The notes beneath the pieces are model-generated. The model was not told where the DNA came from. It saw only the letters and a program-made list of their open reading frames with translations, and ran no database searches. Below are positions 12,313 to 32,074 of a DNA stretch of 64,000 nt, one piece after another (within the stretch, counting starts at the first letter, position 1; the number at the start of each line of letters is the position of its first letter). The stretch is from IMG/VR virus record IMGVR_UViG_3300023176_002545; one strand, 5' to 3'. The translations under genes and the position numbers were made by a program. The DNA comes from a virus.

Positions 12313-13019
12313 TCTGTTATTCCCTCATCAAATAATTCTAGCATATTATTTGCAACACCATGTTTTATTAATGTGTTATATAAGTCAGCACCTTGATACT
12401 TACTTTCATTGTTAAAAACTCTAACATTTAAGTTACTAGTTGGCCACGGACCAAACTTATGTCCTAACAAATACAAAACATCAATAGCATATGTTGCTAT
12501 ATATACAATATTTAGCCCGATTTCTGTATCACTATCAGTGTATTCTAACTCTTCTGGCACAAGTTCTTTATACTTGTCGTTATATTTGCTGGCTTGATCA
12601 ATACAGAACAATGCAACGTGTTGCATTTTGTCTAACAAATCGTCAAATAATTTTCCATGTTCATTAATATACTCGTCGATCATATCATTTGACCACAGAG
12701 TATTCATTGCAGCATCAACATTGTTATATTCTTGACCTAATTTTCTTTTTGCAATTAGTGCTATAATTCTAGCTAGTAAAGGTGCTTCAACTAGAAAATT
12801 AATTTTAATATATTCATTTAGTAGTTCTGCATCAACAGTGTCAAACTGTACTTTAAAGTTTGTGTTAGCAATATAGACTAAGATATGTTTTACAGATAAT
12901 ACTTTTTTACTTTCTTCATAATTTACATGAAGAGTGTAATCATCACTATCTGCTTTGATCTTATAAATTTCTGCTAGATCTGTTGGTTTTAAAGGTAGTA
13001 TATAACTTTGTGTTGACAT
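12309..13019 (-). CDS. Hypothetical protein in the radical SAM locus (236 aa)
   Basis: Long ORF with a GGAGA SD, ATGA-type overlap with rSAM9. No recognised motif. Confidence 0.75.
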   Translation of the reverse strand: MSTQSYILPLKPTDLAEIYKIKADSDDYTLHVNYEESKKVLSVKHILVYIANTNFKVQFDTVDAELLNEYIKINFLVEAPLLARIIALIAKRKLGQEYNNVDAAMNTLWSNDMIDEYINEHGKLFDDLLDKMQHVALFCIDQASKYNDKYKELVPEELEYTDSDTEIGLNIVYIATYAIDVLYLLGHKFGPWPTSNLNVRVFNNESKYQGADLYNTLIKHGVANNMLELFDEGITE

Positions 13020-13027
13020 TGTGTCTC

Positions 13028-14080: not shown

Positions 14081-14463
14081 TATCTTCTTCCCCTTGAGCC
14101 GTGACAGCTATAATGGCAACTACTATGACAGATTCTCCAATCAAAATATGTGTTAGTTAGTCTGCCTTCTATTTGGTTAACTGTGCGTGAAATACAGTTA
14201 GTTGCAAAATTTTGTACCTCACTTGCATATACTTTTAGATTATCTCCAATGTTATTTGGAAGATCTGCTGTACTATATGTTCCTTGTCCTGCGTTTACAT
14301 ACTCATAACGTCTGTTACCGTAAGCAGTTCCAGAACCCCAACCACTTACGTTTGCATAATAGCACGTAGCATTGAAGTTAATAGTCTTGTCAAAAGATCT
14401 AAGACGTAGATACGCATTGTTATAGTATCTTGTTTCTAAAGAAGCGTGTGACTCGCCTGCCAT
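14080..14463 (-). CDS. CHxS-repeat protein 1, candidate radical SAM substrate (127 aa)
   Basis: Ends ICHSSCHYSCHGSRGRR. Paralogous to the neighbour (LRxFDKT, GTAYGNRRYEYVNA). Confidence 0.8.
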   Translation of the reverse strand: MAGESHASLETRYYNNAYLRLRSFDKTINFNATCYYANVSGWGSGTAYGNRRYEYVNAGQGTYSTADLPNNIGDNLKVYASEVQNFATNCISRTVNQIEGRLTNTYFDWRICHSSCHYSCHGSRGRR

Positions 14464-14837
14464 TACCTTCTCCCTCTACTGCCGTGACAACTATAATGGC
14501 AACTTGTATGACAAATACGAAAATCAAAATACTGATTAGTTATTCGACTTTCGATTAAATCACAAGTTCTTGTTATAGCATTTAGTGCCTGGTCTATCAT
14601 ATGTCCTGCATCTACTAGTGTAGTATTGGGATACACGTTTCCGTTGTAATCACTGTTAGGAGCATTTACATACTCATAACGTCTGTTACCATATGCAGTA
14701 CCTGCGTTGTAACCGCCATAGTTTTGATTAGTATAAACTGTGGCTGCTACGTTTACAGTTTTATCAAACCCTCGCAATTGAGCACCAGCATTGCCGGTAA
14801 AATAATCTCTTGCGGATGTTCGATTCATGTTTCCCAT
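14463..14837 (-). CDS. CHxS-repeat protein 2, candidate radical SAM substrate (124 aa)
   Basis: Ends ICHTSCHYSCHGSRGRR. Starts 3 nt after the stop of the 4221-aa fibre gene. Confidence 0.8.
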   Translation of the reverse strand: MGNMNRTSARDYFTGNAGAQLRGFDKTVNVAATVYTNQNYGGYNAGTAYGNRRYEYVNAPNSDYNGNVYPNTTLVDAGHMIDQALNAITRTCDLIESRITNQYFDFRICHTSCHYSCHGSRGRR

Positions 14838-14840
14838 GGA

Positions 14841-15215
14841 TTATACCTTAACTTCAACTACATCTGTACCGTCTTCAATAGCAACACCAATTAATAATGT
14901 GTATTCTGCTATAGTACTTAGTTCGTCTATAGCACGGCCTGCACCGTCCTGATCAGCAATAATATACTGACCTTTCTTAGCAGAACCGTTAATCTTACAT
15001 GGAACACGACCTTTTAGTGCAACGAACGGCCACATTGGATCATCTCTGTTATCGTCTGTTTGGTTCATCATCAAACCTGGCTGTGTTGATACAACGCCTG
15101 CTAGTTTCATGCCTTCTTTGTATAGTGTAACTTCTTTGTCGCCACCAATACCTAGTACTGTACCTGGAGCATACACTGCGTCTGCTTCGTATTTCTCTGC
15201 CAAGTCAGCCCAGTT
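14841..15215 (-). other. C-terminal intramolecular chaperone / autocleavage domain (Peptidase_G2-like) of the fibre
   Basis: ADLAEKY...GVVSTQPGLMMN...VALKGRVPCKI pattern. Confidence 0.65.
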
Positions 15216-18200
15216 AGCACTTGCTGCTGTACCTTGATAAACACCGCTGTTGTCAACGTATGAAACATCTGTACCGTCACGTCTAAACTGAACAATACGA
15301 TCGGAGTTAGCACCAGCTGCCATGTAGAATCTGTTAGCATGATATTCAATCTTACCAACGTCATTACCTGGGTTACCAGTCCATGTTTCGTTTGCGTTTT
15401 CCATAAAGCGGATGCCTGGTGAGTTACCATCATTGTTGTATGAACGTAGTGCCCAGTTACCATCTTCGTTTAGGAAACCTTGTGATGCATCGTCTGCATA
15501 TAGTCTACCATAGATAGTGTTTGAACTGTTGTTTAAACGTAGTTCACATGATCCAGTATTTGCAGAACGGAACGCCATTGCGTTTGTTTCATTTGGATAA
15601 ATGTGCCAGCCTGCGTAGTTGCCACCTTGCCAGTAAATACCTGAGTTGCTTTCAATGCGTACCCAGTTATCAACATATAGCTCGCCTGCAATGTTTGCAC
15701 CGTCGGAACGTGTTTGAACTTTCCAACTACCATTGTGCATCATTTCAGTTTGGCCGCCGTGTACACCGTAGAACAACCACTGGTTATTTACATCGTTGTA
15801 GATACCAGTTGCTGTACCGCCATCATGCATGAATACTGCACGACCATCAATGCTAAAGCCTTCCCAGTTACCATAACCACTACCGCTAATTTGGATTGAA
15901 CCGTAGTCGCCTGTTGGTTCTCTTAAGTAACGTGTAGTTTGGTTACCAACTGCAATAAACTGTTTAACAACTAGTCGACCATCTGTTGTAAGTGCCATAG
16001 CACCAGCTGCTACGCCGTCACCATCATGTCTCCACTTCCAACCACGGTCTGTGTCGTTGTTCATTGTAAAGGTCATTGCATAGTCATTCAACCAACCCAT
16101 TGTTTGACCACTAAACATACCAATTGAGTATGAGCTGTTGTTCCAAACACGTAGTTTGTCGTAACTATCGCTGCCTTCGCCGTCAATGTAACCAATGTTA
16201 TAACGTGTGCCACTTGCAAACAAGTCTGGGAATGTACCAGCGTTTAGATTGCTTGCATTACGGAAGAATGCACTATCATTACCATCTAGTAAGTCTGCAT
16301 CTAAGCCGCTGCCGCTACCATCGTTACCAGCATGCCATACTTTGTATGCATTAGCACCCATTGACCAACCGCCAACTGCTAGATCGTTTGTACTTCCGTC
16401 TAGACCAAAGTGTACAGCATAGTCGCCACCAATATGGAATGTTAAGAATGCATCATATTGGTTAGCACCGTTACCTTGATATAGTTGTAATGTGTTAACT
16501 TCACCAGTGTTTTGAATTGTTGTTGCAGGAGCACTAATTGTAAACACACCGCCACTAAATGCAGCACCAGTATCAACACGTAGGAAGCTACTTGCATGCA
16601 ATCCGTCTAGTAGGTCTGCGTTTAAGCCTGAACCTGCACCGTCGTTAGCGTCAGTCCAAATAGCACCGCCGTTAACATAACCAGTTGTAGCGTTAAAGCT
16701 ACCATTAACATCTAGGTTATAAGTACCGCTTGGATCTTTGTTAATACCAACTTTACCATCACCGCGTACTGAGAATACAATGTTACCATTAGTTTGACTT
16801 ACGTCATTGTTAACACGGAAGAATGTGCTTGCCGCAGCATTGTTTGAGTTAGTGTCAAGTCTTACGTTAACGTTGTTGTAAGAGTTAATGCTTAAACTAT
16901 CGCCAGCACCCCAAGTATCGTTACGTGAACTAATACCATGGTTTACATAGCCGCCAATTGCACCGTAGTTTCCATCCCAGTCAAAGCTAATGCCATGTAC
17001 TTTTGCAAGTTCGCCTGTTGTGCCACCGCTTGAAATAAAGCGTCTATTAGTGTCAATAGTTTCAACGCCGCCTACATTATAACTGTTACCGTCAATAGCA
17101 CCAGTTAGTGTAAGTTCAGCAGCAACTAAGTTACCACCAACGTACAAGTTCTTACCAAAGCTACCACCACCGTCTACACGTAAAGCACCTGTTGTAGTGC
17201 TTGTTGCTTGGTCAGCGGAGTTAACGTGCAAGTAACCACTTGATGCACCAATGTCAATAGCAGTTGCAGCACCACCAATGTTGAGTGTAGTAACTGTATC
17301 GTTTAATAGATCAAATGTTGCTTGGTTAGTACCCAAACTACTTGCTTGTGTAATAACGTTTTTGTTAAGTCTAATAGCATCGCCTGCGAAACTTGCTACA
17401 AGTTCGCTTGTTTGGATGCCGCTACCTGAACCAATACTTTCGGAACCATAAATGTTAACTATAGCACCAGTACCTGAACCAGTACCTGGGTTTGGTTTTA
17501 GATTTAGTTCAGAACCGTTAACGTTAAACTGTCCAGTAATTGGACCTTTTACACCAATTGTACCTGATTGTTTAGAACCTTGTGAACCTCTACCAAACTC
17601 TAGTTTGTGAGTATGTGCATCAGTACCACTTACTTCAACGCGATTAACTTGTGTTGTTGAAGTACTGCCTGAAGTTCCTGAATAGCCTGTGTCAATAAAC
17701 ACAGATCCTGCTACACCACTACCAGTGCTTGCACCGCCTTGTACTGTTAGATCTGCACCTTGCTTGTTAGTACCTAATGCATTTGGTGCTTTGATTACTG
17801 AATCAACTGGAGCAGTTTCTACTGCATCGCCACCTACAACCATTGTAGTATTTCTAACTGCTAGTGTACCAGATTTGTCAGCACCTAAAGTAATTAATGT
17901 TGCTGCTCTACCAATACTTAGTGATGTAACTGTAGTATCGTATACAGTTGCACTTGTCTTAGTAGTTTTAATATCACCACCATCAACATTAAAGTCACCG
18001 TCAATTTGTAGGTTACCTAGTGAATCAAGAACCATGCGTTCTGCTAAGAAGCCTGCTGCCATCAAGTTAAACTTGAAGCTAAAGTCTTCAGAACCAAACG
18101 TTACATCTGATGCAACAGCGTCAATAGTACCACCAACTTCTCTGTTGTTGTTTGCAGTTTCTACTTGGAACTGCATACCAACACCAATACCTACTGCTGG

Positions 18201-21200
18201 TGTGTTAGAAACATCGTGACGTATTTCAAGTGGTCTTGAAACACCAAAGTTGTTAGTATCTTCTACGAACGGAGCAACGTCATTTGACCATGCTGGGTTT
18301 CCTAATTCGTCAACAACCATAACAGCACCTTGGCTACCAATTGGTAGTCTGTTTAGTGTTGTTGGTGATGTTGCATAAATCATATCACCTGCAATATACT
18401 GATCAAGTGCTGTACCACCTTTGTTAACAGGCACAGGGTTTAACATGTTACCTGGATCTAAGAAGTATTGACTGTCTAGTCCGTCAAGTGTACCTGCATC
18501 AAGTACGCCTGCTTTTAGTTCAACTTCACCTGAATTTACATTAAACTGTGCTTTGCTGTATGAAGCAACACCTTCGTTTGTAAAGCTCTGATTACCTAAT
18601 GTATCATCTGCTCTGTCAATATCAAGTTGTGTATCTTTATAATAGAAGTTTTGTCCACCGCTAGTATAGAAGTTACCAGTAATGTTTAGTGGTGAGTTAA
18701 GTGCTGTTCTTGTAGTTCTTACTGCATAATCCCAGCTGCTGTCACCTTTTAAGTATGTGTTACTGTTAGCAGAACCAATAGATGCAAGTCTTGATGTACT
18801 AATAACACCCGAAACAATGTTTGAAGCATCAACGTTTGCACTACCAGTTAGTGCCCAGTTTGCAGAATTTTTACTTGAAGTATTAATTTCGCCGTAAACT
18901 GTGATATTCTGATGGATAAAGTCTGCACTACCACTACCAGTTTGAACAAAGTTAATTGCACCTTGTACAACACCGTTTACACTGTTTAGAGCATCTTCTC
19001 TAAATTCGTGTACTGTGAAAGTGTTTTGACTTACTGTACCTGCGTAGTAGTAAGATCCACTTGACATTCCTGTTGGAGGGTTAGTACCTACAAAGCGGAA
19101 TGCTCTACCAGCTGTAAATCCGTGGTTTGGTGAGTAGATCTTATCTTTACGTGTGTCAACGTTGTTGATAATAAGTGCATGTGTACCAGTTGAACTTACA
19201 GTAAAGTTAACTTTTGTACTTGCATTTAAATCATACCTGTTGTATAATTCAATAGTGTTAGCATCAATTACTTTTACAAAGTAACTTTCACCCTGCAACA
19301 TACCTCCAATTGGAGTGTTTGGTGAGCTTGCATAGTTAACAACGTCACCGTCATCAAATATATGACTTGTTATTTCAATCTGTGAATTTGCATAGTCAAC
19401 ATTACCACCGTTTGCTAGTGTATCTGCATTAAATGCATTAAGCGAGTTACCACCTAGTGCAACAGTATCAACTTGTGCATTGTTATCTTCAATGTACTCG
19501 TTAGTACTTGTTGATGCAACAAACTTGCCTGCAAGTAGATCAACATACAGTCTGTTGTCAACGCTAAGTGCTGAAATTTGGAAAGCTGAACTTGACTGTC
19601 CGCCTAAGTTTCCTGTTGCTGCACTCAATACATCTGTTGTTGTATAACCACTACCACCTCTAACCAAGTCAACGCTTGATACTTGGCCGTTAGTAACTGT
19701 GATATCTGCTCTTGCACCAGTACCTGAACCGTTAACATTTGTTAGTGGTACGTTGTTATATGTTAAAGAACCTGTTGTAGGAACATAACCTGAACCGTTA
19801 CTAATATTTGCTAAGTCAACTGCAAGTAGTACACCTTCAGCTTGTGCAGTAACAACACCTTGTGTTTTTGAGTTAGCTGCTGTAACAGTTACACCGTTTG
19901 TAAATGATGCTCCAGCAGGCTCATATCTCAAATACTGACTGTCACTGTCTTGAATCATTGTGTACTGAATATCACGTGTTTCAGATGAGCCAGTGTTTGT
20001 GATGTATGTTGTAGTGTTGTTGCCATTTTTGCTTAGTGTATTAGCACTAATATTGTTGCTAAATGTGCCAACAATGTTTGTTAGGTAAACAGTAGTTGCA
20101 CCACCGTTGTCTTCATCAACAATAGCAGTAGCACCTGTGTTTGCTTCAACAATTACATCATCTTCGTTAAACTGTGTTGGAGCACTTAGAGTAAACAGTG
20201 TACGTGGATAACGTTCTTGTGCAATGTCACCCTGTAATGGCTCTTGTGGTGGAATATCATCAGTTAGATCATATCTACCAAATTTTGTGTTTGTAGTGAA
20301 CAAACTAAAGTTACGTGTTGCAGGAATAATATCTGCGTTCAACAAACCTTGTGCGTTCATTTGTGGAACAGCACCACTAACTGAGTTAGTAGATACGCTC
20401 TTATCAATAAAGTCACCTAGTCTGTTTGCTAAGAAGCTACGCTGTGCCAACTGTGTTGTCAAACGTGTATCTGTAGCACCACCTGGTTCGTTGTCACCTA
20501 GTCCTGGATCAGTTGAAATTGCTTCAATAACAACATCTGAAACTGCAAGTTTCAGTGCTGAAAGTTCACCAACTGTAACTGTGTTTTTAAATGTAATGTT
20601 ACCAGTTCTGTTTTCTGCAACAATGAAGTCACCAACTTTAAAGTCACCTAGTTCGTTAGTACCTGAAGAGTAAACTCGTCCTGGTAAGTCACTAAACTGT
20701 TCGTATTCTTCTCTTGTAATACCACCGTTCTGTGGTAGAGCGTTATAGTCTGTACCAGAACCTGCATATTCCCAAGTGTGTGATGAACTGTTAACAATTG
20801 AAGGTCTATGGAAACGTATAAATGTTCCCTGTAGGTTACCTGTGTTAGTTAACACACCACCAACAATAGTTGGATCAATAGTAAACTCTGCTGTGTACAA
20901 GTCTGTTCTAGAAGTAAAGCCTGTTACAGCAATGTTACTTTGTGGAATAGCACTACTATCATTGTCAATGATAGAAGTAGCATCAAAGAAGATTCTTGTT
21001 AGAGAACCGCTGTTTTCTGCTTTTTCTACTGAAACAGTAAGTGTGCGTGTTGCTGCTTCATATGTATAAACAAACGCTTTGTTTCTGTAGATACCAGTAG
21101 TTGCTTCAATAAGGTCGCCTGGGTTAAAGTTATAAGTTCCAGGAGCAAGTGTTAGTACTTGATACTTGTTGTGTGTTAGCTTGTTACCATCAGCGTCTTG

Positions 21201-24200
21201 AATAATATCATCAATGAAGAATTCTTCTGTTTGTGTTTCAAGCAAGTGATCACCACTTGACACTGCAACTAGATCTGCAACAAATCCTCTTGAATCATCT
21301 TGATACAATCTAATAATGTCATTAGTTAGAACTTCAACATAGTATAGACCTTGGTCAGCAAGTCCGTTAATTTCAATATTGTTGTTTCTGCGATATGTTA
21401 CAGCATCACCTGTTACAAGTCCGTGTCCAACAATAGTAATTGTGTTAGCAGCAAGATCCAACGAACCTTCTTCATATACAGGATAGTTTGTACCTGTAAA
21501 TGTTATTTCAGTTAGTGTTGCGTTATCATTAACTAGCGGAACTGCTGCTACTGTAATTTCCAATGCACCGCTGGTATTATCATAGACTGCATTTGTAATA
21601 GCCTGTGGACTATTAGCATTGTTAATATCAACAGTACCTCCAGAAACATAAGTTCCTAAGTTTCTACCTGCACCAACTTGAACAGTAAATGTTGTTGCTG
21701 TTACTGATGCTACTGTGTATGTTGCAGTATCACCGTAAAGTGTTCCAACTTCACCGCCGTTAAATGTTATTGTACTTGGAATAGTTTTGAAACTATTAGT
21801 AATATCATTTGCTAAGTTGTTTTCTTCGTCATCGTCATAGAAGCGTAAGATAAACTGGTTAACTGGAGTACGCTTAGTACCAACAGTAATAAGTTTTTGC
21901 TGTGATGCTTGAGCACCGACTTCTGCAACAACACCGCGGTCAAACACAAAGCTGTTTGCTGAGTAACCTGATGAACGTAGTGCATACAAACCAAAGTTAG
22001 TAGCAGAGTTAGTAACAGAAAGGTAAGCACCTGACTGACACCAACAACCGTTGCCTAGGAAGATTTGGAAACACGAAACGATCTGTGCATATGCATCGTT
22101 AGTTAGACGCCAACCAGTACCACCAAATGATAACATGGTGTATGCGTTTGCAACCATTGACTTACCTTGTTCAGGTGTTTCACCAAATACTGGATTCTCA
22201 GCTTCGATAGCAAAACGTGGAATGTTTGGTGTAATGACCTTTGAACCGTCTACCAAACAGCCGCTTAGTCCTAAAAACGAAATAATAGACACGTTCTGTA
22301 CGTATGGTGACTGTGTAATAAGTGGACGTTCTCTTAGTCCTACATAGCCTGTACGATCAACACCAGTATCAAACGGATCGTCAAATGCTGTACAGAATCT
22401 ACCTGTAAAGCTAGGTACGTTAAATGCATCTAGACCGTCTTTGAATGTAATACCCAACAAGTAACAACCATTACGTACACGGAAAATATCTTGGTTAGCA
22501 TTTAGCGGACGAACAATAGTTGTACGCAAGTTATCACCAACAATAGATACATAGTCTGGAATAATAACTGGGTTATCTTCTTTGTATTCACCAGTTGATA
22601 CCATAATGGTTGTGTAACTGATGTTAAACGCACCTTCAACTTCTGTTGGAATGTTTGGTGAGCTAGGACCGTTTTCAATAATATCAATAATAGTGTTGAA
22701 TTCTGACTCAACAACACCTACTGTAGTTCCTTCAACATTCTTAGTTAGATCAGTAATCTGTCCAACTTGATTTTGATATAGTTTAGTGTTTACAACATTC
22801 TTTAGAATGTTATCTACAAGAGTTTGGAAGTATCTATTAGCAAGTATTGTTTGGAACTTAGTATCACCCGGAATAACAAGTGTAGTACCGTTATAGTATG
22901 CTTTACCTGCTTCAATAGCACGTTCGTTACCACCATAGATCAAATCATATTGGATAGCATCGATAAACAATCCAACGTCTCTGCGACAGAACGCAACATC
23001 ATATACAAAGTTAGTAAAGTATGTGTTAATGTAACTAACAACTTCAGCTTGGATGTATGCTTTGTTTAGTGCAATCAAATCAGCTGCATTAAGAATGTTT
23101 GTATCATCTGTTGGAACAATAGCACTTCTTAGTACAGTAATATTTTGTGATGCACTTACACCATCAATAATAATATCTTCAATTATGTCGCCAAGTTCAC
23201 CAATTGTAGTAACTGCTGCTGCACCACCTGGGTTCAGTGTGTCAGTAACTTGGGTTGAGTTAGTTTGCCAACTAACAACTGGATAGTTTTCAGCAACCTG
23301 TTGTGCAAGTCTAATTGCATGCATAATACCATCAACTGTTTGTACAAGCTGGCGAGCAAGTGCAAACTGGCTGCTTTGTTTAAAGTAAGCAATCGCTGCT
23401 GCAACAGAGTTTGTAGTTCCGCCCCATGTTAGGTCAAAGTTAATAGCATCTAGAATGTAACCAACATCACGTCTACATGTTGTTTGGTTGTAGTTGCTTG
23501 AGAAGTTAATCCAACTTCCGTCAACATATGCAACAGTTTCTTTTTGGATGAAAGTTTTGTTGCTTGTGATCAATGAATCAGCATTAACGTATTCTGTTGC
23601 TGTGTTTGCTGAACCGTTTGCATTTACAGTAATGTACTGTGATGTTCCGTCTGTTACAAGATCAATAATAATATCAAGTAGTGCTCCAATAGTGTTTGCA
23701 CTTGTGATGTCGCCCGGGTTTGGTCCATCAAATACTTGGCTTTCGGCTGAGTATGTTGGGCTTACTGTAACATTACGTACAACCTGTGTTGCAAGAGTTT
23801 TTAAGTGATTTAAACCATCAAGTGTTTCTGATAACTGTCCGCTGATAACAATAGCAGCATTTTGTTTATAATATGCAACTGCGGCTGCAATACTATTTGT
23901 ATTACCACCGTGTGTCAGGTCATATTCAACAGCATCAAGAATTAATCCAATATCTCTACGACATGATGTTTGATCGTAAGTTAAACCTGGATGTTGAGCA
24001 TTAATATATTCAATAACTTCTTCTGTAATAAAGTTAGTGTTAGACTGTAGCAATGCTTCAGAATTTAATGCACCAGTGTTTGTTGTTTTTGTAAAGCTAT
24101 TTGTTGTACCAATACCGTTTTTAAGTATAGATATAACATCGTTAGTACGATCATAAACTAATTGTGCTACTGTATTGTTGCTTGGAGTTGCACCGTTAAG

Positions 24201-27200
24201 TGTTTGTGTAAATGTATTTTGATACAGATTAGGAACAGTATTTTGCAATACAACATTTGCTAAAAGATCTCTAGTATATTCTAGTGCATCAACTGTAGGC
24301 TGTAATTGAGCTTTAATAACCTCAACAGCATCACCTGTAATTTCGCCTGTTCCAGTAGTAACATTGTTGTAGTAACTAATACCAGCAAAAATACTTTCAG
24401 CATTACCACCGTGTTTAACGTCATATTGAACTGCGTCAACAATTAGGCCAACGTCACGCTCACATTTAACAGGATCATAGTTAAAGTTACCAAAGTTTTC
24501 TTCAATAAATGCAACAGTTTCTGCTTTAATAAATTCTACGTTAGCTGCTAGTATAGCATTTGCATTTATTACATTTTGTACTAAACTTGGTACAGAGTTA
24601 TTTGGATCAATATTTAAACCAATAGTAGCACTGTCGCCATCGTTAATAATATCAACAATTAGTGTTTGTAATCCTGAAATAGCAGTTTGTGCCGACGCAT
24701 CACCTGGATTAGATGGATCAGTAAACTGTCCAAATGTGCTTTGATAGCTTTGTGCAGGAGCTTGGTTTACAATTACTAGTTTAGCAAGATCAATAGCATA
24801 GTTAATACCGTCAAGTGTTTGTGTTAACTGGCTGTTAAGTGCAGTACTTGCACTATATTGATAGTAGGCTAGTGCTGCTTGAATACTTTCATTATTACCG
24901 CCATGTGTTATATCATAACGTATTGCGTCAAGAATTAATCCAACATCTCTGCGGCACTTATTTTGATCATATATAAACAAGTTAGCATCAACATATGCAA
25001 TAGCGTCATCAATTAATGTAGCTTTGTTAGTATTGATTTGTAATGCTGCGTCTTGTAATTGTTGGTCTGCCCAAGATATACTTGGGTAAGTTTTAGATGG
25101 TAAATTGTTAAGGTTACCAGCAGTAATAACATCTTCAATTATTTGTAGCAAGCCGTCGAGTGTTGTTGCTTCAGTGCTAGTTGCATTACCGCTTGAGAAG
25201 TTTTGTGCAACTACTGCTTGTTCAGCAGTTACTGAAATACCTTGTACTACATTGCTTACATGACCTGCTAAGAAGTTATAAGCATCAGCAGTAATAGTAG
25301 CTTCGCCAGCACCTAGTTGACTTGCTGCACCTACAAAATATGATTCAGCAGCAAGAACAGATGCACTGTTACCACCATAAACAATATCATAAGTTAAAGC
25401 GTCTACAATATATCCTACATCACGTGAACATGCTGCTGTATCGTATGTGTGTGAAGGATAAGTGTTTGCAATATATGCAAGTACCTCTGCTTGTAGGAAG
25501 CTTCTGTTAGCTTGTAGTTGATCTCTTGCGTCACTTAAATCTTGGCTTGCACCAGTTGGGGCAGGGAATGTTAATGCATTTGCATTACCTACACCATTTT
25601 GTAAAATATCTATTACTTCGTCAAATGCAACAGTTGCTCTAGTGCTTGCTGTTGACCAACTAGACACATCGCTTAGTGCAAGAACATCTGTTTTAAGATT
25701 ACCAATTGCTCCTACAGTTAGTGTTAATTGATTGCTTTGTAAGTATGCTGTGTTTGCACGTTGATACGCTAAACCTGCTGTTACAGCATTATAGTTAGTA
25801 CCTAGTGCAATGTCTGCTGCTACTGCATCTAGTATTAAACCAGAGTCTCTACGACATTTAGTTTCATCGTAAGTTGACTGATATTGTGAATCTAAATAAC
25901 CAATAACTTCTTCTTTAATGAAGTCAGTGTTTTGTGTAATAAGTGTATCAGAATTAAGTCTAGCTGTGTCAGTAGTTATTACACCGTTTGCAGTACCAAT
26001 GCCTGTGTTTAACAAGCTATAGATAATGCTAAGATTATTATAGATTGTTGTTCCTTCTGCAGATGTGCCAGGAGTTAAACTTGTATCTTGTGCTACAGTG
26101 TTCTGATATAGATAATCAACAGTTTCACCTAGTACAACTTTTTGTGCAAGAGATCTTGCATAGTCAATACCTGCTAGTGTTTGAAACTTTTGATCAGAAC
26201 GTACTAAAGATGCTTGTGCATTTAGATATGTAATACCAGCATAATGCGATTCTGCATTACCACTGTATAACAAATCATAGTTTGCAGCATCAATAATTAA
26301 TCCTGTATCACGTGAACATTTTGCAGCATCAAATTGGAAGCCGCTGTATTTTTGATTTAAGAATGCAATAACTTCATCTTGAATAAATGTTTTGTTAGCA
26401 TCTATAAGAGTTTCTGCATTTAATATATCTGTATCTTGTGTTTGTGTTTCGTTAGGTTGAACACCACCAGTGTCACCTGTGTAGTAACTTAAAACTTTAT
26501 CACCAAGTGCTGAAACTGTTGCTGATTCAGATGCTGTTGCAGTTTTAGTACCATCAAATTGCTGCTGTACTGCTGCTTGAGTATTATCTGTAATAGCAGT
26601 GTTAGTAACTACTGCTGTTGCAAGTTCTTTGATACGACGAAGACCATATTCAGTTGCAACGTCTTGTGCTTGTTTAACTAGTGCTGAACTTTCTAGTGCA
26701 TAGAATGCACCAGCAACGCTTGAAGCTGCATCGCCGCCATAGCGTAAATCGTTTTCAATAGCGTCAACAATTAATCCAACATCACGCTCGCATTTTGCTT
26801 GATCATATGTAATATTAAATGCATTTGAGCTAAATGCAATAACTTCGTCTTGTAAGAAGTCTCTGTTAACTTCCAATAGATCTTTTGCATCATACGCAGA
26901 TTGTCCTGGATCAACAACTGGTGTAAAAATACCGTCAGATGCAATTTGTGCAGCACGTTTAATTGTTTTAACTGGTTGTAGACGACCGTCATTGTTGTCG
27001 TCACCGTATTGAGCACTTACATAAATTCTATTACCACCTAGTGAGCCTGGGTCACTCCACTGTGTTTGTCCAAAACCTAAGTTTTGAAGAATTTGTCCTT
27101 TACGTGCATCAGTATCAGGAAGTATAATATCGTAGGAATCTGATAACTCTGAAGGTGCTTTAACGTTAACAGTATTTGATCCAAACTGTGATAATTCTCT

Positions 27201-27506
27201 AAACTTAACTGCACCTTGATCGTCAAGTTCTAAATCGTCCGCTAGAAAAACTTGGTTACCATCTATACGGAGTTTTTCTATGCCATCAACATCAACTGTA
27301 ACAACACCATTTCCTTGGTCATTGACTATTACGCGAGTATCGCCTTTTTCAATCTGTTGTGTGATGTCTTTTATAGTGCCGTCGGACTGTTTGATAAACA
27401 TTTTACCGTCGGCAGTGTTGATTGCAATTTCGCCCAAATCTAATTGTGCGGATTGTGGTTCCTGCCCGGTAACATTGTTTCTTTTATGTAATATTTTGTT
27501 TGCCAT
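14841..27506 (-). CDS. Giant tail fibre / virion appendage protein (4221 aa)
   Basis: N-terminal attachment motif (KRNNVTGQEPQSAQLDLGEIAINTADGKMF), pectate-lyase-like beta-helix segments, DADLLDG fibre repeats, three H-x-F-x2-GD-x-V-x-Y modules and a C-terminal chaperone-like domain. Confidence 0.85.
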   Translation of the reverse strand: MANKILHKRNNVTGQEPQSAQLDLGEIAINTADGKMFIKQSDGTIKDITQQIEKGDTRVIVNDQGNGVVTVDVDGIEKLRIDGNQVFLADDLELDDQGAVKFRELSQFGSNTVNVKAPSELSDSYDIILPDTDARKGQILQNLGFGQTQWSDPGSLGGNRIYVSAQYGDDNNDGRLQPVKTIKRAAQIASDGIFTPVVDPGQSAYDAKDLLEVNRDFLQDEVIAFSSNAFNITYDQAKCERDVGLIVDAIENDLRYGGDAASSVAGAFYALESSALVKQAQDVATEYGLRRIKELATAVVTNTAITDNTQAAVQQQFDGTKTATASESATVSALGDKVLSYYTGDTGGVQPNETQTQDTDILNAETLIDANKTFIQDEVIAFLNQKYSGFQFDAAKCSRDTGLIIDAANYDLLYSGNAESHYAGITYLNAQASLVRSDQKFQTLAGIDYARSLAQKVVLGETVDYLYQNTVAQDTSLTPGTSAEGTTIYNNLSIIYSLLNTGIGTANGVITTDTARLNSDTLITQNTDFIKEEVIGYLDSQYQSTYDETKCRRDSGLILDAVAADIALGTNYNAVTAGLAYQRANTAYLQSNQLTLTVGAIGNLKTDVLALSDVSSWSTASTRATVAFDEVIDILQNGVGNANALTFPAPTGASQDLSDARDQLQANRSFLQAEVLAYIANTYPSHTYDTAACSRDVGYIVDALTYDIVYGGNSASVLAAESYFVGAASQLGAGEATITADAYNFLAGHVSNVVQGISVTAEQAVVAQNFSSGNATSTEATTLDGLLQIIEDVITAGNLNNLPSKTYPSISWADQQLQDAALQINTNKATLIDDAIAYVDANLFIYDQNKCRRDVGLILDAIRYDITHGGNNESIQAALAYYQYSASTALNSQLTQTLDGINYAIDLAKLVIVNQAPAQSYQSTFGQFTDPSNPGDASAQTAISGLQTLIVDIINDGDSATIGLNIDPNNSVPSLVQNVINANAILAANVEFIKAETVAFIEENFGNFNYDPVKCERDVGLIVDAVQYDVKHGGNAESIFAGISYYNNVTTGTGEITGDAVEVIKAQLQPTVDALEYTRDLLANVVLQNTVPNLYQNTFTQTLNGATPSNNTVAQLVYDRTNDVISILKNGIGTTNSFTKTTNTGALNSEALLQSNTNFITEEVIEYINAQHPGLTYDQTSCRRDIGLILDAVEYDLTHGGNTNSIAAAVAYYKQNAAIVISGQLSETLDGLNHLKTLATQVVRNVTVSPTYSAESQVFDGPNPGDITSANTIGALLDIIIDLVTDGTSQYITVNANGSANTATEYVNADSLITSNKTFIQKETVAYVDGSWINFSSNYNQTTCRRDVGYILDAINFDLTWGGTTNSVAAAIAYFKQSSQFALARQLVQTVDGIMHAIRLAQQVAENYPVVSWQTNSTQVTDTLNPGGAAAVTTIGELGDIIEDIIIDGVSASQNITVLRSAIVPTDDTNILNAADLIALNKAYIQAEVVSYINTYFTNFVYDVAFCRRDVGLFIDAIQYDLIYGGNERAIEAGKAYYNGTTLVIPGDTKFQTILANRYFQTLVDNILKNVVNTKLYQNQVGQITDLTKNVEGTTVGVVESEFNTIIDIIENGPSSPNIPTEVEGAFNISYTTIMVSTGEYKEDNPVIIPDYVSIVGDNLRTTIVRPLNANQDIFRVRNGCYLLGITFKDGLDAFNVPSFTGRFCTAFDDPFDTGVDRTGYVGLRERPLITQSPYVQNVSIISFLGLSGCLVDGSKVITPNIPRFAIEAENPVFGETPEQGKSMVANAYTMLSFGGTGWRLTNDAYAQIVSCFQIFLGNGCWCQSGAYLSVTNSATNFGLYALRSSGYSANSFVFDRGVVAEVGAQASQQKLITVGTKRTPVNQFILRFYDDDEENNLANDITNSFKTIPSTITFNGGEVGTLYGDTATYTVASVTATTFTVQVGAGRNLGTYVSGGTVDINNANSPQAITNAVYDNTSGALEITVAAVPLVNDNATLTEITFTGTNYPVYEEGSLDLAANTITIVGHGLVTGDAVTYRRNNNIEINGLADQGLYYVEVLTNDIIRLYQDDSRGFVADLVAVSSGDHLLETQTEEFFIDDIIQDADGNKLTHNKYQVLTLAPGTYNFNPGDLIEATTGIYRNKAFVYTYEAATRTLTVSVEKAENSGSLTRIFFDATSIIDNDSSAIPQSNIAVTGFTSRTDLYTAEFTIDPTIVGGVLTNTGNLQGTFIRFHRPSIVNSSSHTWEYAGSGTDYNALPQNGGITREEYEQFSDLPGRVYSSGTNELGDFKVGDFIVAENRTGNITFKNTVTVGELSALKLAVSDVVIEAISTDPGLGDNEPGGATDTRLTTQLAQRSFLANRLGDFIDKSVSTNSVSGAVPQMNAQGLLNADIIPATRNFSLFTTNTKFGRYDLTDDIPPQEPLQGDIAQERYPRTLFTLSAPTQFNEDDVIVEANTGATAIVDEDNGGATTVYLTNIVGTFSNNISANTLSKNGNNTTTYITNTGSSETRDIQYTMIQDSDSQYLRYEPAGASFTNGVTVTAANSKTQGVVTAQAEGVLLAVDLANISNGSGYVPTTGSLTYNNVPLTNVNGSGTGARADITVTNGQVSSVDLVRGGSGYTTTDVLSAATGNLGGQSSSAFQISALSVDNRLYVDLLAGKFVASTSTNEYIEDNNAQVDTVALGGNSLNAFNADTLANGGNVDYANSQIEITSHIFDDGDVVNYASSPNTPIGGMLQGESYFVKVIDANTIELYNRYDLNASTKVNFTVSSTGTHALIINNVDTRKDKIYSPNHGFTAGRAFRFVGTNPPTGMSSGSYYYAGTVSQNTFTVHEFREDALNSVNGVVQGAINFVQTGSGSADFIHQNITVYGEINTSSKNSANWALTGSANVDASNIVSGVISTSRLASIGSANSNTYLKGDSSWDYAVRTTRTALNSPLNITGNFYTSGGQNFYYKDTQLDIDRADDTLGNQSFTNEGVASYSKAQFNVNSGEVELKAGVLDAGTLDGLDSQYFLDPGNMLNPVPVNKGGTALDQYIAGDMIYATSPTTLNRLPIGSQGAVMVVDELGNPAWSNDVAPFVEDTNNFGVSRPLEIRHDVSNTPAVGIGVGMQFQVETANNNREVGGTIDAVASDVTFGSEDFSFKFNLMAAGFLAERMVLDSLGNLQIDGDFNVDGGDIKTTKTSATVYDTTVTSLSIGRAATLITLGADKSGTLAVRNTTMVVGGDAVETAPVDSVIKAPNALGTNKQGADLTVQGGASTGSGVAGSVFIDTGYSGTSGSTSTTQVNRVEVSGTDAHTHKLEFGRGSQGSKQSGTIGVKGPITGQFNVNGSELNLKPNPGTGSGTGAIVNIYGSESIGSGSGIQTSELVASFAGDAIRLNKNVITQASSLGTNQATFDLLNDTVTTLNIGGAATAIDIGASSGYLHVNSADQATSTTTGALRVDGGGSFGKNLYVGGNLVAAELTLTGAIDGNSYNVGGVETIDTNRRFISSGGTTGELAKVHGISFDWDGNYGAIGGYVNHGISSRNDTWGAGDSLSINSYNNVNVRLDTNSNNAAASTFFRVNNDVSQTNGNIVFSVRGDGKVGINKDPSGTYNLDVNGSFNATTGYVNGGAIWTDANDGAGSGLNADLLDGLHASSFLRVDTGAAFSGGVFTISAPATTIQNTGEVNTLQLYQGNGANQYDAFLTFHIGGDYAVHFGLDGSTNDLAVGGWSMGANAYKVWHAGNDGSGSGLDADLLDGNDSAFFRNASNLNAGTFPDLFASGTRYNIGYIDGEGSDSYDKLRVWNNSSYSIGMFSGQTMGWLNDYAMTFTMNNDTDRGWKWRHDGDGVAAGAMALTTDGRLVVKQFIAVGNQTTRYLREPTGDYGSIQISGSGYGNWEGFSIDGRAVFMHDGGTATGIYNDVNNQWLFYGVHGGQTEMMHNGSWKVQTRSDGANIAGELYVDNWVRIESNSGIYWQGGNYAGWHIYPNETNAMAFRSANTGSCELRLNNSSNTIYGRLYADDASQGFLNEDGNWALRSYNNDGNSPGIRFMENANETWTGNPGNDVGKIEYHANRFYMAAGANSDRIVQFRRDGTDVSYVDNSGVYQGTAASANWADLAEKYEADAVYAPGTVLGIGGDKEVTLYKEGMKLAGVVSTQPGLMMNQTDDNRDDPMWPFVALKGRVPCKINGSAKKGQYIIADQDGAGRAIDELSTIAEYTLLIGVAIEDGTDVVEVKV
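22650..26920 (-). repeat. Nine tandem ~142-167-aa helical repeats with motif YDxxxCxRDxGxIxDAxxxDxxxGGN
   Basis: Invariant Cys codons at 26790, 26316, 25854, 25428, 24954, 24462, 23961, 23475 and 22986. Boundaries approximate. Confidence 0.9.
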
Positions 27507-27571: not shown

Positions 27572-30500
27572 TTAGAAGGTTCCGCCATCGATAGTAAAGT
27601 TATTAATGTAACTTAAATCAATACCAGAGCCTTCAATATCCTGTCCTACGTAGATATCTCTACCTACTCCGACACCACCTTCTACTATTAAAGCACCAGA
27701 TGTAGTTGATCCAGCTTCAGTTGTTGATTCTATTCGGGTTTCTTGGGCAACAAATAGCTTTTCTTTAATGCCAACACCACCGTCAACTACTAATGCACCT
27801 GTAGTACTATCAGTAGACGCTGTAGCGTTTTCTATACGTGTTATGCCTGCAACATATAGATTTTTACCAATGCCAATGCCACCTTCAATTACAACAGCAC
27901 CTGTAGAAGTGCTTGTTGAATCTACAGTGTTTGTAGCATTAATAATACCGTCAACGTAAATATTTTCAGCAACGCCAATGCCACCTTTAAATATTACGCC
28001 GCCTGTTAGTGAGCTAGTACTACCATCTAGTGATTCAAATATTGTTTGACCACTAGTTGCACCAAAACTAATATTTGTTGAGCTATTAAATGCTCTCAAA
28101 AACTGAATGTTGTCTCTTAGTAAGTCAAAGTTTTGTTGAAGTGTGTTTATACTTCCACCTTCAACATTTAAATCTCCACCTAGGTGTATATTTTCACCAA
28201 CACCTAAACCACCGCCAATTACTACAGCACCATTTGTTTCAGCTGTTGAGCCTGCGTTAGAATTAAATCGTGTAGTACCTGCTGCGTTACCAAAGCTAAC
28301 ATATGTTGCTTGACCAAATGCGTTTATTGTTGTAGCTGTTGTATTGAAAACATTTTGTGTAGTTGAGCTACCATAAATGTCACCTTCAATAAACAATTCA
28401 CCTTCAATGGTCATGTTCTTCATTGACACAATACGGCCGCTACCTGCTGCATCTAATTGCAACGGAGCGTTTGTATTGAGTGTTGAAATACGTGTACCAA
28501 ATACGCCTATTTCTGGGAAGTAAACATTTTTAGCAAATGTTGCATCTTCAGCAACTGTTAAAAAGTCTGTAAAGACATCAGGAACGTTAATGTTTGCTGT
28601 AACGTTTAGAATACCATCAACTGTTGTGTTACCATTTAACTGTGTAGGTGTGTTAACAACAAGTTCAGTATCGTCAAAACGTAAATTGTCGCTTGTTTGA
28701 ATTTCATTTTGGAAATCAATATAAGCAATTCTGTTTATTAATTCACCAGTAACAAACATTCTTGGTGAAGTAACCCAACTGCTTGCGTTTAGTACACCAG
28801 TAACATTTGTATCTGCTTCTAGATTAATTTCGCCTGTACCATTTACCATTATATCAATATCTGAATTAGATATTGTGGTTTTAATAGCATTGCCTTCAAT
28901 GTTTAAATTTCCGTCAATTAAAATACCACCTTGCCAACCTTGGTTTGTTAGTCTAGCAAGTTCAACTCCGCCGCCGTAGAAGAATAGTGTATTCTCATTT
29001 GAGCCTGGGCTAAGTTCTGGTAAAATATAAGTGTCGCCGTCTACATCACGAACTCCACCTAATGAACTCCAAGCAAGACCATTCCAACCTTCATATTGGT
29101 TAGTGTCAGTATTAAAACGAACTTGTCCAACTTCACCTGGAGGTCTTGTAGCAACACCGCCTACAGGAAGTACAAGAGCAGTTTCTCCTACAATTCTTAT
29201 CTGTCCTGAGCCTGCTGCTGAAATTTCAAAATCAGCATTGGTATTTGTTGTACTGATTCTATTTTGGAATATTCTAAAATCGCTTGTATTGATTGAAGCA
29301 ATCCACGCTTCGCTAAACATTGCTGTGCTATGACCAATGTCATATGCCATGTTAACATCTGGAATAATATCACTTGCAAAGTTTGCAGCAGCAATACTTG
29401 TAACATTTAGTGTAGCATTAGGAGCACTAATAGTACCACCTGGTAGTACAATGTCTCCGTCAATGTTTACTGTTTTGTTAAAGAAAAACTCACCAGTACC
29501 GCCTGGAGTTATTTCAAAACGATAATCAGTATTGATACTATTCATTACCATAGTATCGTTTTCAAATGTAAAGTTTTTATGATTAAAACGTGTACTGTTT
29601 ACAGTTAAATCGTCAAAGTCCCATTGACCAATTAGTGATCCGCCTGCGTAAATGTCAAATCTATCATCATTTGAACCTGGAGTTACTTCTGGAGTAATGT
29701 AAGTGTTGCCATCAATATCTTTGATGCCACCCAATGAGCTCCAAGCAGTTCCTTGATAACCTTCAAATGATTGTAATTGTGTGTTAAAACGTATAGCACC
29801 TGTTTCTGGATTAGAGCCACGTTCAGGTGTATTACCAACTGGAACTCTTAAAAAGCTATAGCCGCCAATTAATACTCTACCAGCACCACTAGGATTAATT
29901 TCTAAATCTTGGTTTGTTGTATCAACAGAAATTACGTTGTTTTCAATGCGTACATCGTCAACTTGTACTTTACCAGCATACAATGCTCCCCACACTGCAT
30001 CTGGAGCACCTAGGTCCCAAACGCCTGTAAATTCTGTTGCAGGTTGAATATTGCTTTCAACATATGATTTAAATCTTGTAACATATGGGAACGGATCTAC
30101 TGGATTTCCTGGAGGTGTACCAAGATCAATATCACCTCTAAGTACAATAGGACCACCAGTAAGTTCAAGTTGTTGTGCTCCGTCTGAAGCGTTAACTGTT
30201 ATTTGACCTTCTGCAGAATATAAACTTAATGCATCTAGTGCGTCAATTTCAAGTATGTCTGTAGAGCCAATACCGTTGTTAGCAAATGTTAAGAAACCTG
30301 TTGTAACTTCAGTTGCAGTAATAGTACTTCTGTTACCTTGACCGTCATCAAATGATAAGCCACCTGCTAGAGCACCAAAGTTAAGTCCGCTACCATCAAT
30401 TTGTACTTCGCCTGTTTCTTGTGATACGTAGAACAAGTCGCCTACACGGAAGTCACCTAAATGGTCAACGGAAGTATAACGTACTTTACCACCATTTAGT

Positions 30501-32074
30501 TCAATAACTTCATTGCCTTGTATAGCATCTGAAGCACGGTTAGTTGTTAGTTTACCTGTACCAACATAACCAAAGTTATGACTTACTAGACGTAAACTTA
30601 CACCTGGACCATCTGCTGTAACACCTGAGTTACCATATACCATTGCAGAACCAATTGCACGTAGTTCTACACCAAATTCAAATTTTGTTACTTCAACAAT
30701 ATTTTCTGCTTGTACACCAGAAACTGTACCAATAATAGAACCACCTTGACCATACTGTGGTGTAAAGTCAACACCGTCTAGTCCAGTGTATAGTCCTGTA
30801 ATTGATAGTGTGTTAGTTGCTGGATTCCAACTTGAAATTTGAAACTGTGCTACTGTTGAACCATCTGTTGAAGTATAACGTACTGTTTCGCCTGGAATAA
30901 AGTTTCCACCTGTTACGTTATTAACAATAACATATGTTTGGCCTGTACCGCCCCAACCTTGTGTTCCTGTTGTTGCATGGAATGCTTTGTCTGCTAGATA
31001 AACAAACGAGTTTAGCATTTCTATTCTAATACCGTTTGTAGCATATATACCAGTTTGACCTGGTGCAAATATTGTTACCTCATTGAGCAACATGCTTGGC
31101 TCAATTGAGTTTCTGTTTATAAATTGACCATCTGCTTTAACACCTCGGCCTGCATCATGTGCATCAAAACCGTATGGATCATCAGATGAATTAATACCTA
31201 ATCTTACAGTTGAACCAAAGTTCAATACTGTAACATTCATTATGTATGGACCACGTGTAAAGTTTGCTGTTGTTGATTCGTCAAAACAGAAAGCATAACC
31301 TGTATCGTTTATGCTGTCGTACTCCATTTCACGAACAGTTAACATTTCTACTGTGCCGCCACCTCTAAATTGGAAACCGTTTTGTGTACGAGTAGCTGAT
31401 GTTGGTTTAATCTGTGTTGAACGAATACCTTGTCCAACAATGTTAACACCAGGATATACTGTTAGTGGAAAAATTTCTTCAAATGTACCTGAGCCAATTT
31501 TAACTGTGTCGCCATTACGTGCAACAACAAGTGCTTGTCTAATAGTACGGAAAGCATCTTGCATGCTTTCACCTGTGTTACCGTCACTACCATTTACAGT
31601 AACCCAGTAAACATTACCTTCTTTCTTAGTAATATCAACACCATTAGCATAGATACCACCAGTACCTGCACTGTCTAAATATAAACTAGTATTAGAGTCA
31701 ATTGAACTAATGCCAGTACGATCACCGTCACCATCTAGTCTTAGGTTGTTAATATTAACAACTTCACCTGTAAAGGTAGTTGCTGCTTCACCAACAGTAA
31801 GCAAGTTGTTAATAACAACATTACCAGTGCCACTTGCTGTAATAACAAGATCACCGTTTGAGAATTGTGGTTCTAAAATACTTGTTTGAATTCTAGTTGA
31901 ATTAACAGTATCACTAAAAAAGCCGCTACCAGAAACATCAATTTCTGCTATAGGTCTAGTAGTTTTACCTACAGCAAGTTTCGAGTCTGAAGTAACTTCT
32001 CCAAACCTATTAATTTTTAATGCTTCATCTTTTACATTCTTTGATGCTAATGTAGTACGCTTTAAATATTTCAT
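27572..32074 (-). CDS. Large fibre/virion structural protein (1500 aa)
   Basis: Beta-helix head paralogous to that of the 4221-aa protein, two RFNT-x4-EG-x5-WSSLGG-x2-D-x-DG-x-TYI modules and C-terminal GAxVxxGGxG repeats. Confidence 0.8.
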   Translation of the reverse strand: MKYLKRTTLASKNVKDEALKINRFGEVTSDSKLAVGKTTRPIAEIDVSGSGFFSDTVNSTRIQTSILEPQFSNGDLVITASGTGNVVINNLLTVGEAATTFTGEVVNINNLRLDGDGDRTGISSIDSNTSLYLDSAGTGGIYANGVDITKKEGNVYWVTVNGSDGNTGESMQDAFRTIRQALVVARNGDTVKIGSGTFEEIFPLTVYPGVNIVGQGIRSTQIKPTSATRTQNGFQFRGGGTVEMLTVREMEYDSINDTGYAFCFDESTTANFTRGPYIMNVTVLNFGSTVRLGINSSDDPYGFDAHDAGRGVKADGQFINRNSIEPSMLLNEVTIFAPGQTGIYATNGIRIEMLNSFVYLADKAFHATTGTQGWGGTGQTYVIVNNVTGGNFIPGETVRYTSTDGSTVAQFQISSWNPATNTLSITGLYTGLDGVDFTPQYGQGGSIIGTVSGVQAENIVEVTKFEFGVELRAIGSAMVYGNSGVTADGPGVSLRLVSHNFGYVGTGKLTTNRASDAIQGNEVIELNGGKVRYTSVDHLGDFRVGDLFYVSQETGEVQIDGSGLNFGALAGGLSFDDGQGNRSTITATEVTTGFLTFANNGIGSTDILEIDALDALSLYSAEGQITVNASDGAQQLELTGGPIVLRGDIDLGTPPGNPVDPFPYVTRFKSYVESNIQPATEFTGVWDLGAPDAVWGALYAGKVQVDDVRIENNVISVDTTNQDLEINPSGAGRVLIGGYSFLRVPVGNTPERGSNPETGAIRFNTQLQSFEGYQGTAWSSLGGIKDIDGNTYITPEVTPGSNDDRFDIYAGGSLIGQWDFDDLTVNSTRFNHKNFTFENDTMVMNSINTDYRFEITPGGTGEFFFNKTVNIDGDIVLPGGTISAPNATLNVTSIAAANFASDIIPDVNMAYDIGHSTAMFSEAWIASINTSDFRIFQNRISTTNTNADFEISAAGSGQIRIVGETALVLPVGGVATRPPGEVGQVRFNTDTNQYEGWNGLAWSSLGGVRDVDGDTYILPELSPGSNENTLFFYGGGVELARLTNQGWQGGILIDGNLNIEGNAIKTTISNSDIDIMVNGTGEINLEADTNVTGVLNASSWVTSPRMFVTGELINRIAYIDFQNEIQTSDNLRFDDTELVVNTPTQLNGNTTVDGILNVTANINVPDVFTDFLTVAEDATFAKNVYFPEIGVFGTRISTLNTNAPLQLDAAGSGRIVSMKNMTIEGELFIEGDIYGSSTTQNVFNTTATTINAFGQATYVSFGNAAGTTRFNSNAGSTAETNGAVVIGGGLGVGENIHLGGDLNVEGGSINTLQQNFDLLRDNIQFLRAFNSSTNISFGATSGQTIFESLDGSTSSLTGGVIFKGGIGVAENIYVDGIINATNTVDSTSTSTGAVVIEGGIGIGKNLYVAGITRIENATASTDSTTGALVVDGGVGIKEKLFVAQETRIESTTEAGSTTSGALIVEGGVGVGRDIYVGQDIEGSGIDLSYINNFTIDGGTF
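27640..28250 (-). repeat. Five STxxxxGA(V/L)(V/I)xxGG(I/V)G(I/V) fibre-shaft repeats
   Basis: Seen in the translation of the C-terminus of 27572..32074. One similar unit occurs in the 4221-aa protein. Confidence 0.7.

Follow-up and report, generated by a model that had tools for sequence, protein, structure and literature searches.

Phycobiliproteins and related proteins are known as pigment proteins of the cell, and in phycobiliproteins a Cys-x-Arg-Asp site in helix E bears a thioether-linked bilin. Outside light harvesting, two groups of phycobiliprotein paralogs, the bilin biosynthesis-associated globins (BBAGs) BBAG-1 and BBAG-3, share this CXRD motif, and genes for heme oxygenase and bilin reductase occur alongside them (PMC10151467). 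BBAGs with the motif need no lyase for bilin attachment (Rockwell, Martin and Lagarias 2023, PMC10151467). Phages also encode hemO-pcyX/pcyA cassettes, the role of which has been called "still enigmatic", BBAGs being mentioned only as a possibility (PMC11480375). Full-text searches returned no report of phycobiliprotein-like domains in phage structural proteins. Here we describe such domains in a giant tail fibre encoded by the IMG/VR virus record IMGVR_UViG_3300023176_002545, of which a stretch of 64,000 nucleotides (hereafter the window) was analysed. Profile comparison and structure prediction together establish that the N-proximal third of this fibre comprises nine tandem domains homologous to phycobiliproteins, with the attachment-site motif intact. 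As the best explanation of the findings as a whole, we further consider it somewhat better than an even bet that these domains carry a covalent bilin on the motif cysteine.

The fibre is encoded in a single open reading frame (ORF) of 4221 amino acids (aa) on the minus strand, which encloses the whole repeat region (Table 1). Exactly nine C-x-R-D-x-G sites are present, at aa 239, 397, 551, 693, 851, 1015, 1182, 1344 and 1507, giving motif-to-motif spacings of 158, 154, 142, 158, 164, 167, 162 and 163 aa, and the nine corresponding units, which cover aa 203-1631 (window 22614-26900), can be aligned in full at 29-45% identity. Twelve positions are invariant among the nine repeats (N13, C37, R39, D40, G42, D46, A47, D51, A63, Y67, T83 and G143). 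The nine motif cysteines, one per unit, are the only cysteines of the repeat region, eight further cysteines occurring later in the protein. Motif search and alignment thus agree with an earlier note made from the sequence, which had described nine repeats spaced 142-167 aa apart with an invariant cysteine in a tail fibre. The same note had each repeat preceded by A-x2-L-x2-N-x2-F-x3-E-V-x2-Y; this element is present as a consensus upstream of the motif (NAxxLIxxNxxFIQxEVIAY), in which the Asn alone is invariant. In nucleotide sequence the repeat region matched none of 50,697 phage records, similarity being seen at the protein level only.

To represent the repeat structurally, repeat 5 was modelled from an alignment of 97 sequences, comprising the nine repeats and 88 copies from viral metagenome contigs. 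The resulting AlphaFold model (predicted local distance difference test score, pLDDT, 90.5; predicted template modelling score, pTM, 0.86) consists of six helices, with an ordered 24-residue loop ahead of the last helix. Every PDB entry listed by Foldseek for this model is a phycobiliprotein, with template modelling (TM) scores of 0.54-0.66. A wide structural search of 48,161 representative PDB chains, independent of Foldseek, placed phycoerythrin first (Z 15.5, root-mean-square deviation (rmsd) 2.2 Å, 137 of 164 residues), followed by the ApcE bilin domain (Z 14.5) and allophycocyanin (Z 13.8). Phycobiliproteins made up the best eight rows of this search, with photocobilins, RsbR and heme globin sensors appearing lower, at Z 8-12. 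The predicted core of the repeat is globin-type and is built of six helices, A, B, E, F, G and H, with Cys-x-Arg-Asp at the start of helix E. Residues 1-141 of the model align to phycobiliproteins from residue 33/35 onward, and the N-terminal X-Y helix hairpin, which in phycobiliproteins pairs alpha with beta subunits, is absent from the model in the structural alignment. When repeats 5 and 6 were modelled jointly (pLDDT 82.8, pTM 0.62), the linker between the two domains was predicted to span only 15 residues.

Sequence comparisons point to the same family. When all PDB sequences were searched with a profile built from the nine repeats, 14 of the 17 hits were phycocyanin alpha chains (best E 0.004); E-values of the repeat profiles against PDB are marginal (0.004-0.01), with the alignment in register. 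These matches align at K-C-x-R-D-x-G ... Y ... GG, in accordance with the likeness to the bilin helix of phycocyanin alpha remarked on in the earlier note. In a profile-profile comparison (hhalign) of the 97 repeats with ten phycobiliprotein genes from one Synechococcus genome, the two families aligned at 87% probability (E 3.9e-6) over 95 collinear columns, with C37, R39 and D40 of the repeat on Cys84, Arg86 and Asp87 of CpcA, Y50 on Tyr97 and G55 on Gly102. Arg93, invariant in the ten aligned phycobiliproteins, is Asp in the repeat. The globin/phycobilin fold that the earlier note had proposed is therefore borne out, both by the phycobiliprotein-like fold recovered with Foldseek and by this profile match.

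The repeat defines a large family. Its profile identified 1497 cluster representatives in a library of 1.8 billion proteins, among proteins of up to 6382 aa and with up to 37 copies. Within cultured phages, tblastn found the repeat in cyanophages only (144 records), and cultured cyanophages possessing it include S-PM2, Syn1, Syn9 and P-HM2. A search of 185,579 prokaryote species genomes with a four-repeat alignment returned four loci only, all in metagenome-assembled genomes (MAGs); we read these as binned phage DNA and not as cellular genes, the family being in effect phage-specific. The matches include a Verrucomicrobiales MAG and a contig of 193,981 bases in a Synechococcus MAG, the latter having the genome size of a T4-like cyanophage and therefore probably representing binned phage DNA. 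Where predicted viral structures adopt this fold, their annotations name only structural, tail or fibre proteins.

Constraint on the attachment site was assessed among 761 copies that cover it, at a mean identity of about 29%. The cysteine is present in 725 of these (95.3%), the arginine in 95.7% and the aspartate in 97.1%, with the full CxRD retained in 715 of 761 (94%), and most of the 761 domains possess exactly one cysteine. Two other residues, D51 (99%) and Y67 (98%), exceed the conservation of CxRD. Over 161 profile positions, no histidine was conserved at 70% or more of the copies, and globin-type heme binding was rejected on this ground. Also identified in many copies was a short form of about 105 aa (profile positions 2-107), lacking the long loop and the last helix, in G033 (112188-124997), G010, G053 and G057; in the phages with this short form, matches to profile positions 105-157 sit elsewhere in the same protein.

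Genes for bilin synthesis accompany the repeat in uncultured phages. Among 50 related repeat-bearing viral records, a heme oxygenase gene adjoins a ferredoxin-dependent bilin reductase gene in six, among them two of the three records with a completeness of 90% or more, and G032, the capsid protein of which shares 82% identity with that of the source phage. Given that the 50 records amount to 13.6 genome equivalents, six cassettes imply that roughly four in ten such genomes carry one, usually at a distance of tens of kilobases from the repeat gene. The photosystem gene psbA was found neither in the source record nor in these 50 records, which fits the non-cyanobacterial host suggested in the earlier note, a host that is itself unproven. 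A single bilin reductase query gave only four close relatives; the reverse search was made with an alignment of five phage reductases, and the 28 longest reductase-bearing viral records were examined. None of the 28 has psbA and 10 possess the repeat, which is present in 8 of the 10 records that are at least 40% complete. As a control, we took 21 records (7.3 genome equivalents) with capsid proteins 52-76% identical to that of G033, a phage with both features; neither repeat nor reductase was detected in any of the 21, the sensitivity of the repeat profile having been confirmed on known positives. The comparison of repeat with reductase at the same level of completeness (8/10 versus 0/6) gives a Fisher p of 0.0035, uncorrected for relatedness. 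Pairing of repeat and cassette occurs in at least three capsid lineages, with capsid proteins 82% identical to that of the source phage, 34-37% identical, or not detectably similar.

In G033 the heme oxygenase and bilin reductase genes (242482-246033) overlap by a few bases, and are flanked by a thymidylate synthase gene and by phage GroES/GroEL-like chaperonin genes. In four cassette-bearing phages the giant repeat gene is followed directly by a further ORF (about 290 aa) that holds just one phycobiliprotein-like domain (Table 1) and could constitute a free-standing form of the domain.

A second association was found in cultured cyanophages, where 17 T4-like cyanomyovirus genomes and one podovirus were searched for the repeat, CpeT and reductase. 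The repeat is present in 14 of the 17 cyanomyoviruses, 12 of which also have cpeT, whereas cpeT is found in none of the three without the repeat (P-SSM2, S-SM2 and S-SSM7; p = 0.015, or 0.018 without P-HM1, which is of the same species as P-HM2). The two genes are close neighbours in S-PM2, Syn1 and S-RSM4, phages of three genera: cpeT is located upstream, at 0.7-1.5 kb from the giant repeat gene and in the same orientation. In S-PM2 (165307-165888) and Syn1 (20572-21144), a 2-oxoglutarate (2OG)-Fe(II) oxygenase gene is found between the two, fibre genes then following; this oxygenase could belong to the same functional unit as cpeT and the repeat gene. The distribution of the repeat also parallels adsorption phenotypes. 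Liu et al. 2019 (PMC6628666) report that darkness prevents the adsorption of P-HM1 and P-HM2, that P-SSM2 still adsorbs without light but in smaller numbers, and that P-SSP7 is able to adsorb without light. The three phages that require light for adsorption, S-PM2, P-HM1 and P-HM2, all possess the repeat, and it is absent from P-SSM2 and P-SSP7. As the comparison covers five phages, of which P-HM1 and P-HM2 are conspecific, this match is a lead, not a test. In the RefSeq record of S-PM2 (NC_006820), sixteen transfer RNA (tRNA) features with one shared locus tag are placed within the giant short-tail-fibre coding sequence (165928-177267), which looks like an annotation or coordinate problem of the record.

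Taken together, the constraint on a lone cysteine and its Arg-Asp partners, the precedent of the BBAGs and the two gene associations make it likely, but unproven, that the cysteine of the phage domains carries a bilin. Under this proposal, each domain would covalently bind a linear tetrapyrrole on the motif cysteine, loaded in the infected cell before assembly, either by a phage CpeT-type lyase or by self-attachment. The pigment would be supplied by the phage heme oxygenase and bilin reductase cassette where the host makes no bilins, and by the host in cyanophages, and the virion would then bear a row of pigments on each fibre. More speculatively, such pigments might render the fibre light-responsive, for example through light-dependent adsorption, or might stabilise or protect it. 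The widest version of this proposal is one that we advance tentatively and consider doubtful: that many aquatic phages build bilin-pigmented fibres, that the arrays are the acceptor behind the cassettes, cpeT and light-dependent adsorption, and that the fibre acts as a photoreceptor gating attachment by light.

A number of observations weigh against a bilin-bearing fibre. We infer attachment from homology and gene co-occurrence, and related phages share genes by descent, such that the Fisher tests for both associations overstate independence. The repeats do not reach the gathering score of the Pfam phycobilisome model (PF00502), and when they were scanned singly only one of the nine matched, at E 0.017; they are therefore treated as a distinct branch of the phycobiliprotein/BBAG group outside PF00502. 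Heme oxygenase, bilin reductase and CpeT were all absent from the source record, which spans 118 kb and is 33% complete. A close relative that is 93% complete (G008; capsid 82% identical to that of the source phage) retains the cysteine in 13 of 13 repeats and has no cassette, and a 100% complete phage (G063) has the cassette without the repeat. Likewise, P-SSM2 and S-SSM7 possess a reductase and lack the repeat, and no link between reductase and repeat was detected among the cyanomyoviruses (p = 0.54), a result that fits hosts already making bilins. As to the means of attachment, S-type lyases (PF09367) were found in none of 16 uncultured records tested and CpeT in only one, and the attachment site for which T-type lyases are known is Cys-153/155 of beta subunits and not Cys84 (PMC10452541). 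The need for a lyase would drop for the phage domains given the lyase-free attachment seen in BBAGs.

The main rival is that the domains descend from bilin-binding globins and now serve, free of pigment, as rigid helical beads setting the length and stiffness of the fibre, with Cys, Arg and Asp kept for folding or packing. We judge this unlikely, while still regarding it as a serious contender. Copy number varies from 1 to 37 repeats per protein, as would be expected of a length-setting module, and the common occurrence of the short form without the last helix in some phages is readily accommodated. The lack of bilin genes in the source record and in its 93%-complete relative agrees with a structural role, as does the ranking of D51 and Y67 above CxRD, which could reflect core packing. 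Set against these points, a spacer gives no reason to expect a lone cysteine in 95% of copies so divergent in sequence, nor the retention at 96-97% of the Arg and Asp at bilin-holding positions, and it leaves unexplained both the co-occurrence with bilin synthesis genes and cpeT and the adjacency of cpeT.

Other chemistry at the cysteine, such as inter-chain disulfides, a metal site or a non-covalent ligand such as heme, is in our estimation improbable. It draws on the presence of one exposed-type cysteine per domain in a protein that ends outside the cell, on the globin-like fold, with globin sensors matching at Z 9-11, and on phage heme oxygenase, which could equally point to heme handling. 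The lack of a conserved histidine makes a globin-type heme site unlikely, however, and the best fold and sequence matches are to bilin proteins and not to heme globins; moreover, one of the two cassette enzymes is a bilin reductase, whose step comes after the opening of heme. Finally, a chance or convergent likeness, in which an unrelated helical bundle bears a short phycocyanin-like motif, is nearly excluded, since the marginal single-profile E-values, the failure to pass the Pfam model and the middling structural Z scores that helical bundles often give are outweighed by the closeness of the leading structural match, by the origin of the best eight rows of the wide search and of every listed Foldseek row in one family, and by the collinear hhalign alignment with the motif in register.

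The genomic setting of the fibre gene is that of a T4-like phage, with baseplate wedge, major head and portal genes in its surroundings. The gene sits in the tail module, as shown by the adjoining baseplate wedge-like gene (Table 1), and a second baseplate wedge gene of the window is located at 56169-59621. In its capsid protein the phage shares about 70% identity with jumbo phages of Proteobacteria that have genomes of 350-470 kb. At 117,792 bases, the source record (an IMG/VR fragment) is estimated to be 33% complete, which indicates a phage genome of probably about 350 kb. Outside the repeats, the fibre itself yielded few family assignments: a Pfam scan of the full-length protein (4221 aa) was empty at E <= 1, no Pfam family reached the cut-off in its N-terminal 202 aa, and a PDB sequence search of aa 1632-2150 gave no match. 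The best stretch of the match to phrog_5342 covers aa 2220-2939, in the distal part, and a match to phrog_22593 at aa 4090-4189 overlaps the weak Peptidase_G2 match. Downstream of the fibre gene are ten ORFs (window 5560-14837), all on the minus strand, four of which (342-393 aa) match the unknown-function family phrog_31457; two small ORFs match phrog_35144, and the last (5560-6771) matches a radical SAM family. Pfam gave no match for any of the ten, PHROGs returned no families besides the radical SAM one and ones of unknown function, and nothing related to bilins was indicated among them.

Table 1. Coordinates of the fibre gene, its repeats and neighbouring features in the window, and of single-domain matches in other phage records
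Feature	Coordinates	Strand	Remarks
Giant tail-fibre ORF P0001, 4221 aa	14841..27506	-	PHROG tail fiber phrog_5342, E 2.7e-250; short tail fiber phrog_4527, E 1.2e-101
N-terminal 202 aa ahead of the repeats, presumed fibre attachment part	26901..27506	-	Position only; role inferred
Phycobiliprotein-like repeat 1, aa 203-360	26427..26900	-	Cys codon 26790-26792
Repeat 2, aa 361-514	25965..26426	-	Cys codon 26316-26318
Repeat 3, aa 515-656	25539..25964	-	Cys codon 25854-25856; shortest unit
Repeat 4, aa 657-814	25065..25538	-	Cys codon 25428-25430
Repeat 5, aa 815-978	24573..25064	-	Cys codon 24954-24956; unit modelled
Repeat 6, aa 979-1145	24072..24572	-	Cys codon 24462-24464; modelled jointly with repeat 5
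Repeat 7, aa 1146-1307	23586..24071	-	Cys codon 23961-23963
Repeat 8, aa 1308-1470	23097..23585	-	Cys codon 23475-23477
Repeat 9, aa 1471-1631	22614..23096	-	Cys codon 22986-22988
Distal part of the fibre (2590 aa), presumed shaft and receptor-binding region	14841..22613	-	Best tail-fibre profile match of the protein
Weak match, endosialidase beta-barrel domain, aa about 2784-2834	19005..19157	-	PF12195, E 3.5e-5, 24.1 bits, below the 35-bit cut-off
Weak match, Peptidase_G2 intramolecular-chaperone cleavage domain, aa about 4087-4152	15051..15248	-	PF11962, E 2.1e-4, 21.2 bits, below the 25-bit cut-off
Baseplate wedge-like protein, 1500 aa, upstream neighbour	27572..32074	-	phrog_32294, E 1.9e-101
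Single-domain match in separate ORF, G010	193477-193968		Record coordinates
Single-domain match in separate ORF, G033	125571-126053		Record coordinates
Single-domain match in separate ORF, G053	12294-12776		Record coordinates
Single-domain match in separate ORF, G057	5656-6153		Record coordinates

If the domains are pigmented, the purpose of heme oxygenase and bilin reductase cassettes in phages of seemingly non-photosynthetic bacteria becomes directly testable, as does the target of phage CpeT, and with the repeat present in several cultured cyanophages such tests need no new isolates. Even without pigment, 1497 representatives lacking a Pfam model amount to a large unannotated domain family, one that records the passage of genes between bilin-binding globins and structural proteins of phages.

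In comparison with known systems, the phage domains differ from the heme globins, in which a proximal histidine is conserved that has no counterpart at the 70% level among the 761 copies. Photoglobins, photocobilins, which bind biliverdin, and RsbR-type sensor globins share the globin-type fold (Z 12.1-12.3) and rank below phycobiliproteins. BBAG-2, which groups with photoglobins, is without the CXRD motif (PMC10151467). Within phages, T4-like cyanophages encode giant proteins of the 'short tail fiber' or 'virion structural' kind (clusters 734 and 830 of the T4-like genes, e.g. S-PM2p091 and the product of the S-PM2 gene at 165928-177267) that contain the same repeat, and none of these is annotated as phycobiliprotein-like. 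These proteins are of similar giant size and, like the source fibre, belong to the baseplate/fibre module, where they adjoin gp12; the cyanophage copies differ in number, with 3-12 detected repeats per genome, and in sequence, at 23-34% identity to the source repeats. Phycobiliproteins of PF00502 (CpcA, phycoerythrin beta and the ApcE bilin domain) have the same six-helix core (rmsd about 2 Å), a unit of about 160 aa, and Cys84/Arg86/Asp87, Tyr97 and Gly102 in common with the repeat. They are free subunits, whereas the phage domains follow one another head to tail within a structural protein, in numbers of up to 37; these domains are also set apart by the absence of the X-Y hairpin, by Asp in place of Arg93, by the 24-residue loop before the last helix, and by their occurrence in phages without sign of a photosynthetic host. 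BBAG-1 and BBAG-3 resemble the phage repeat in bearing CXRD on a globin fold, but, as described, BBAGs are single-domain cellular proteins clustered with a reductase, whereas the phage domains form tandem arrays within virion proteins.

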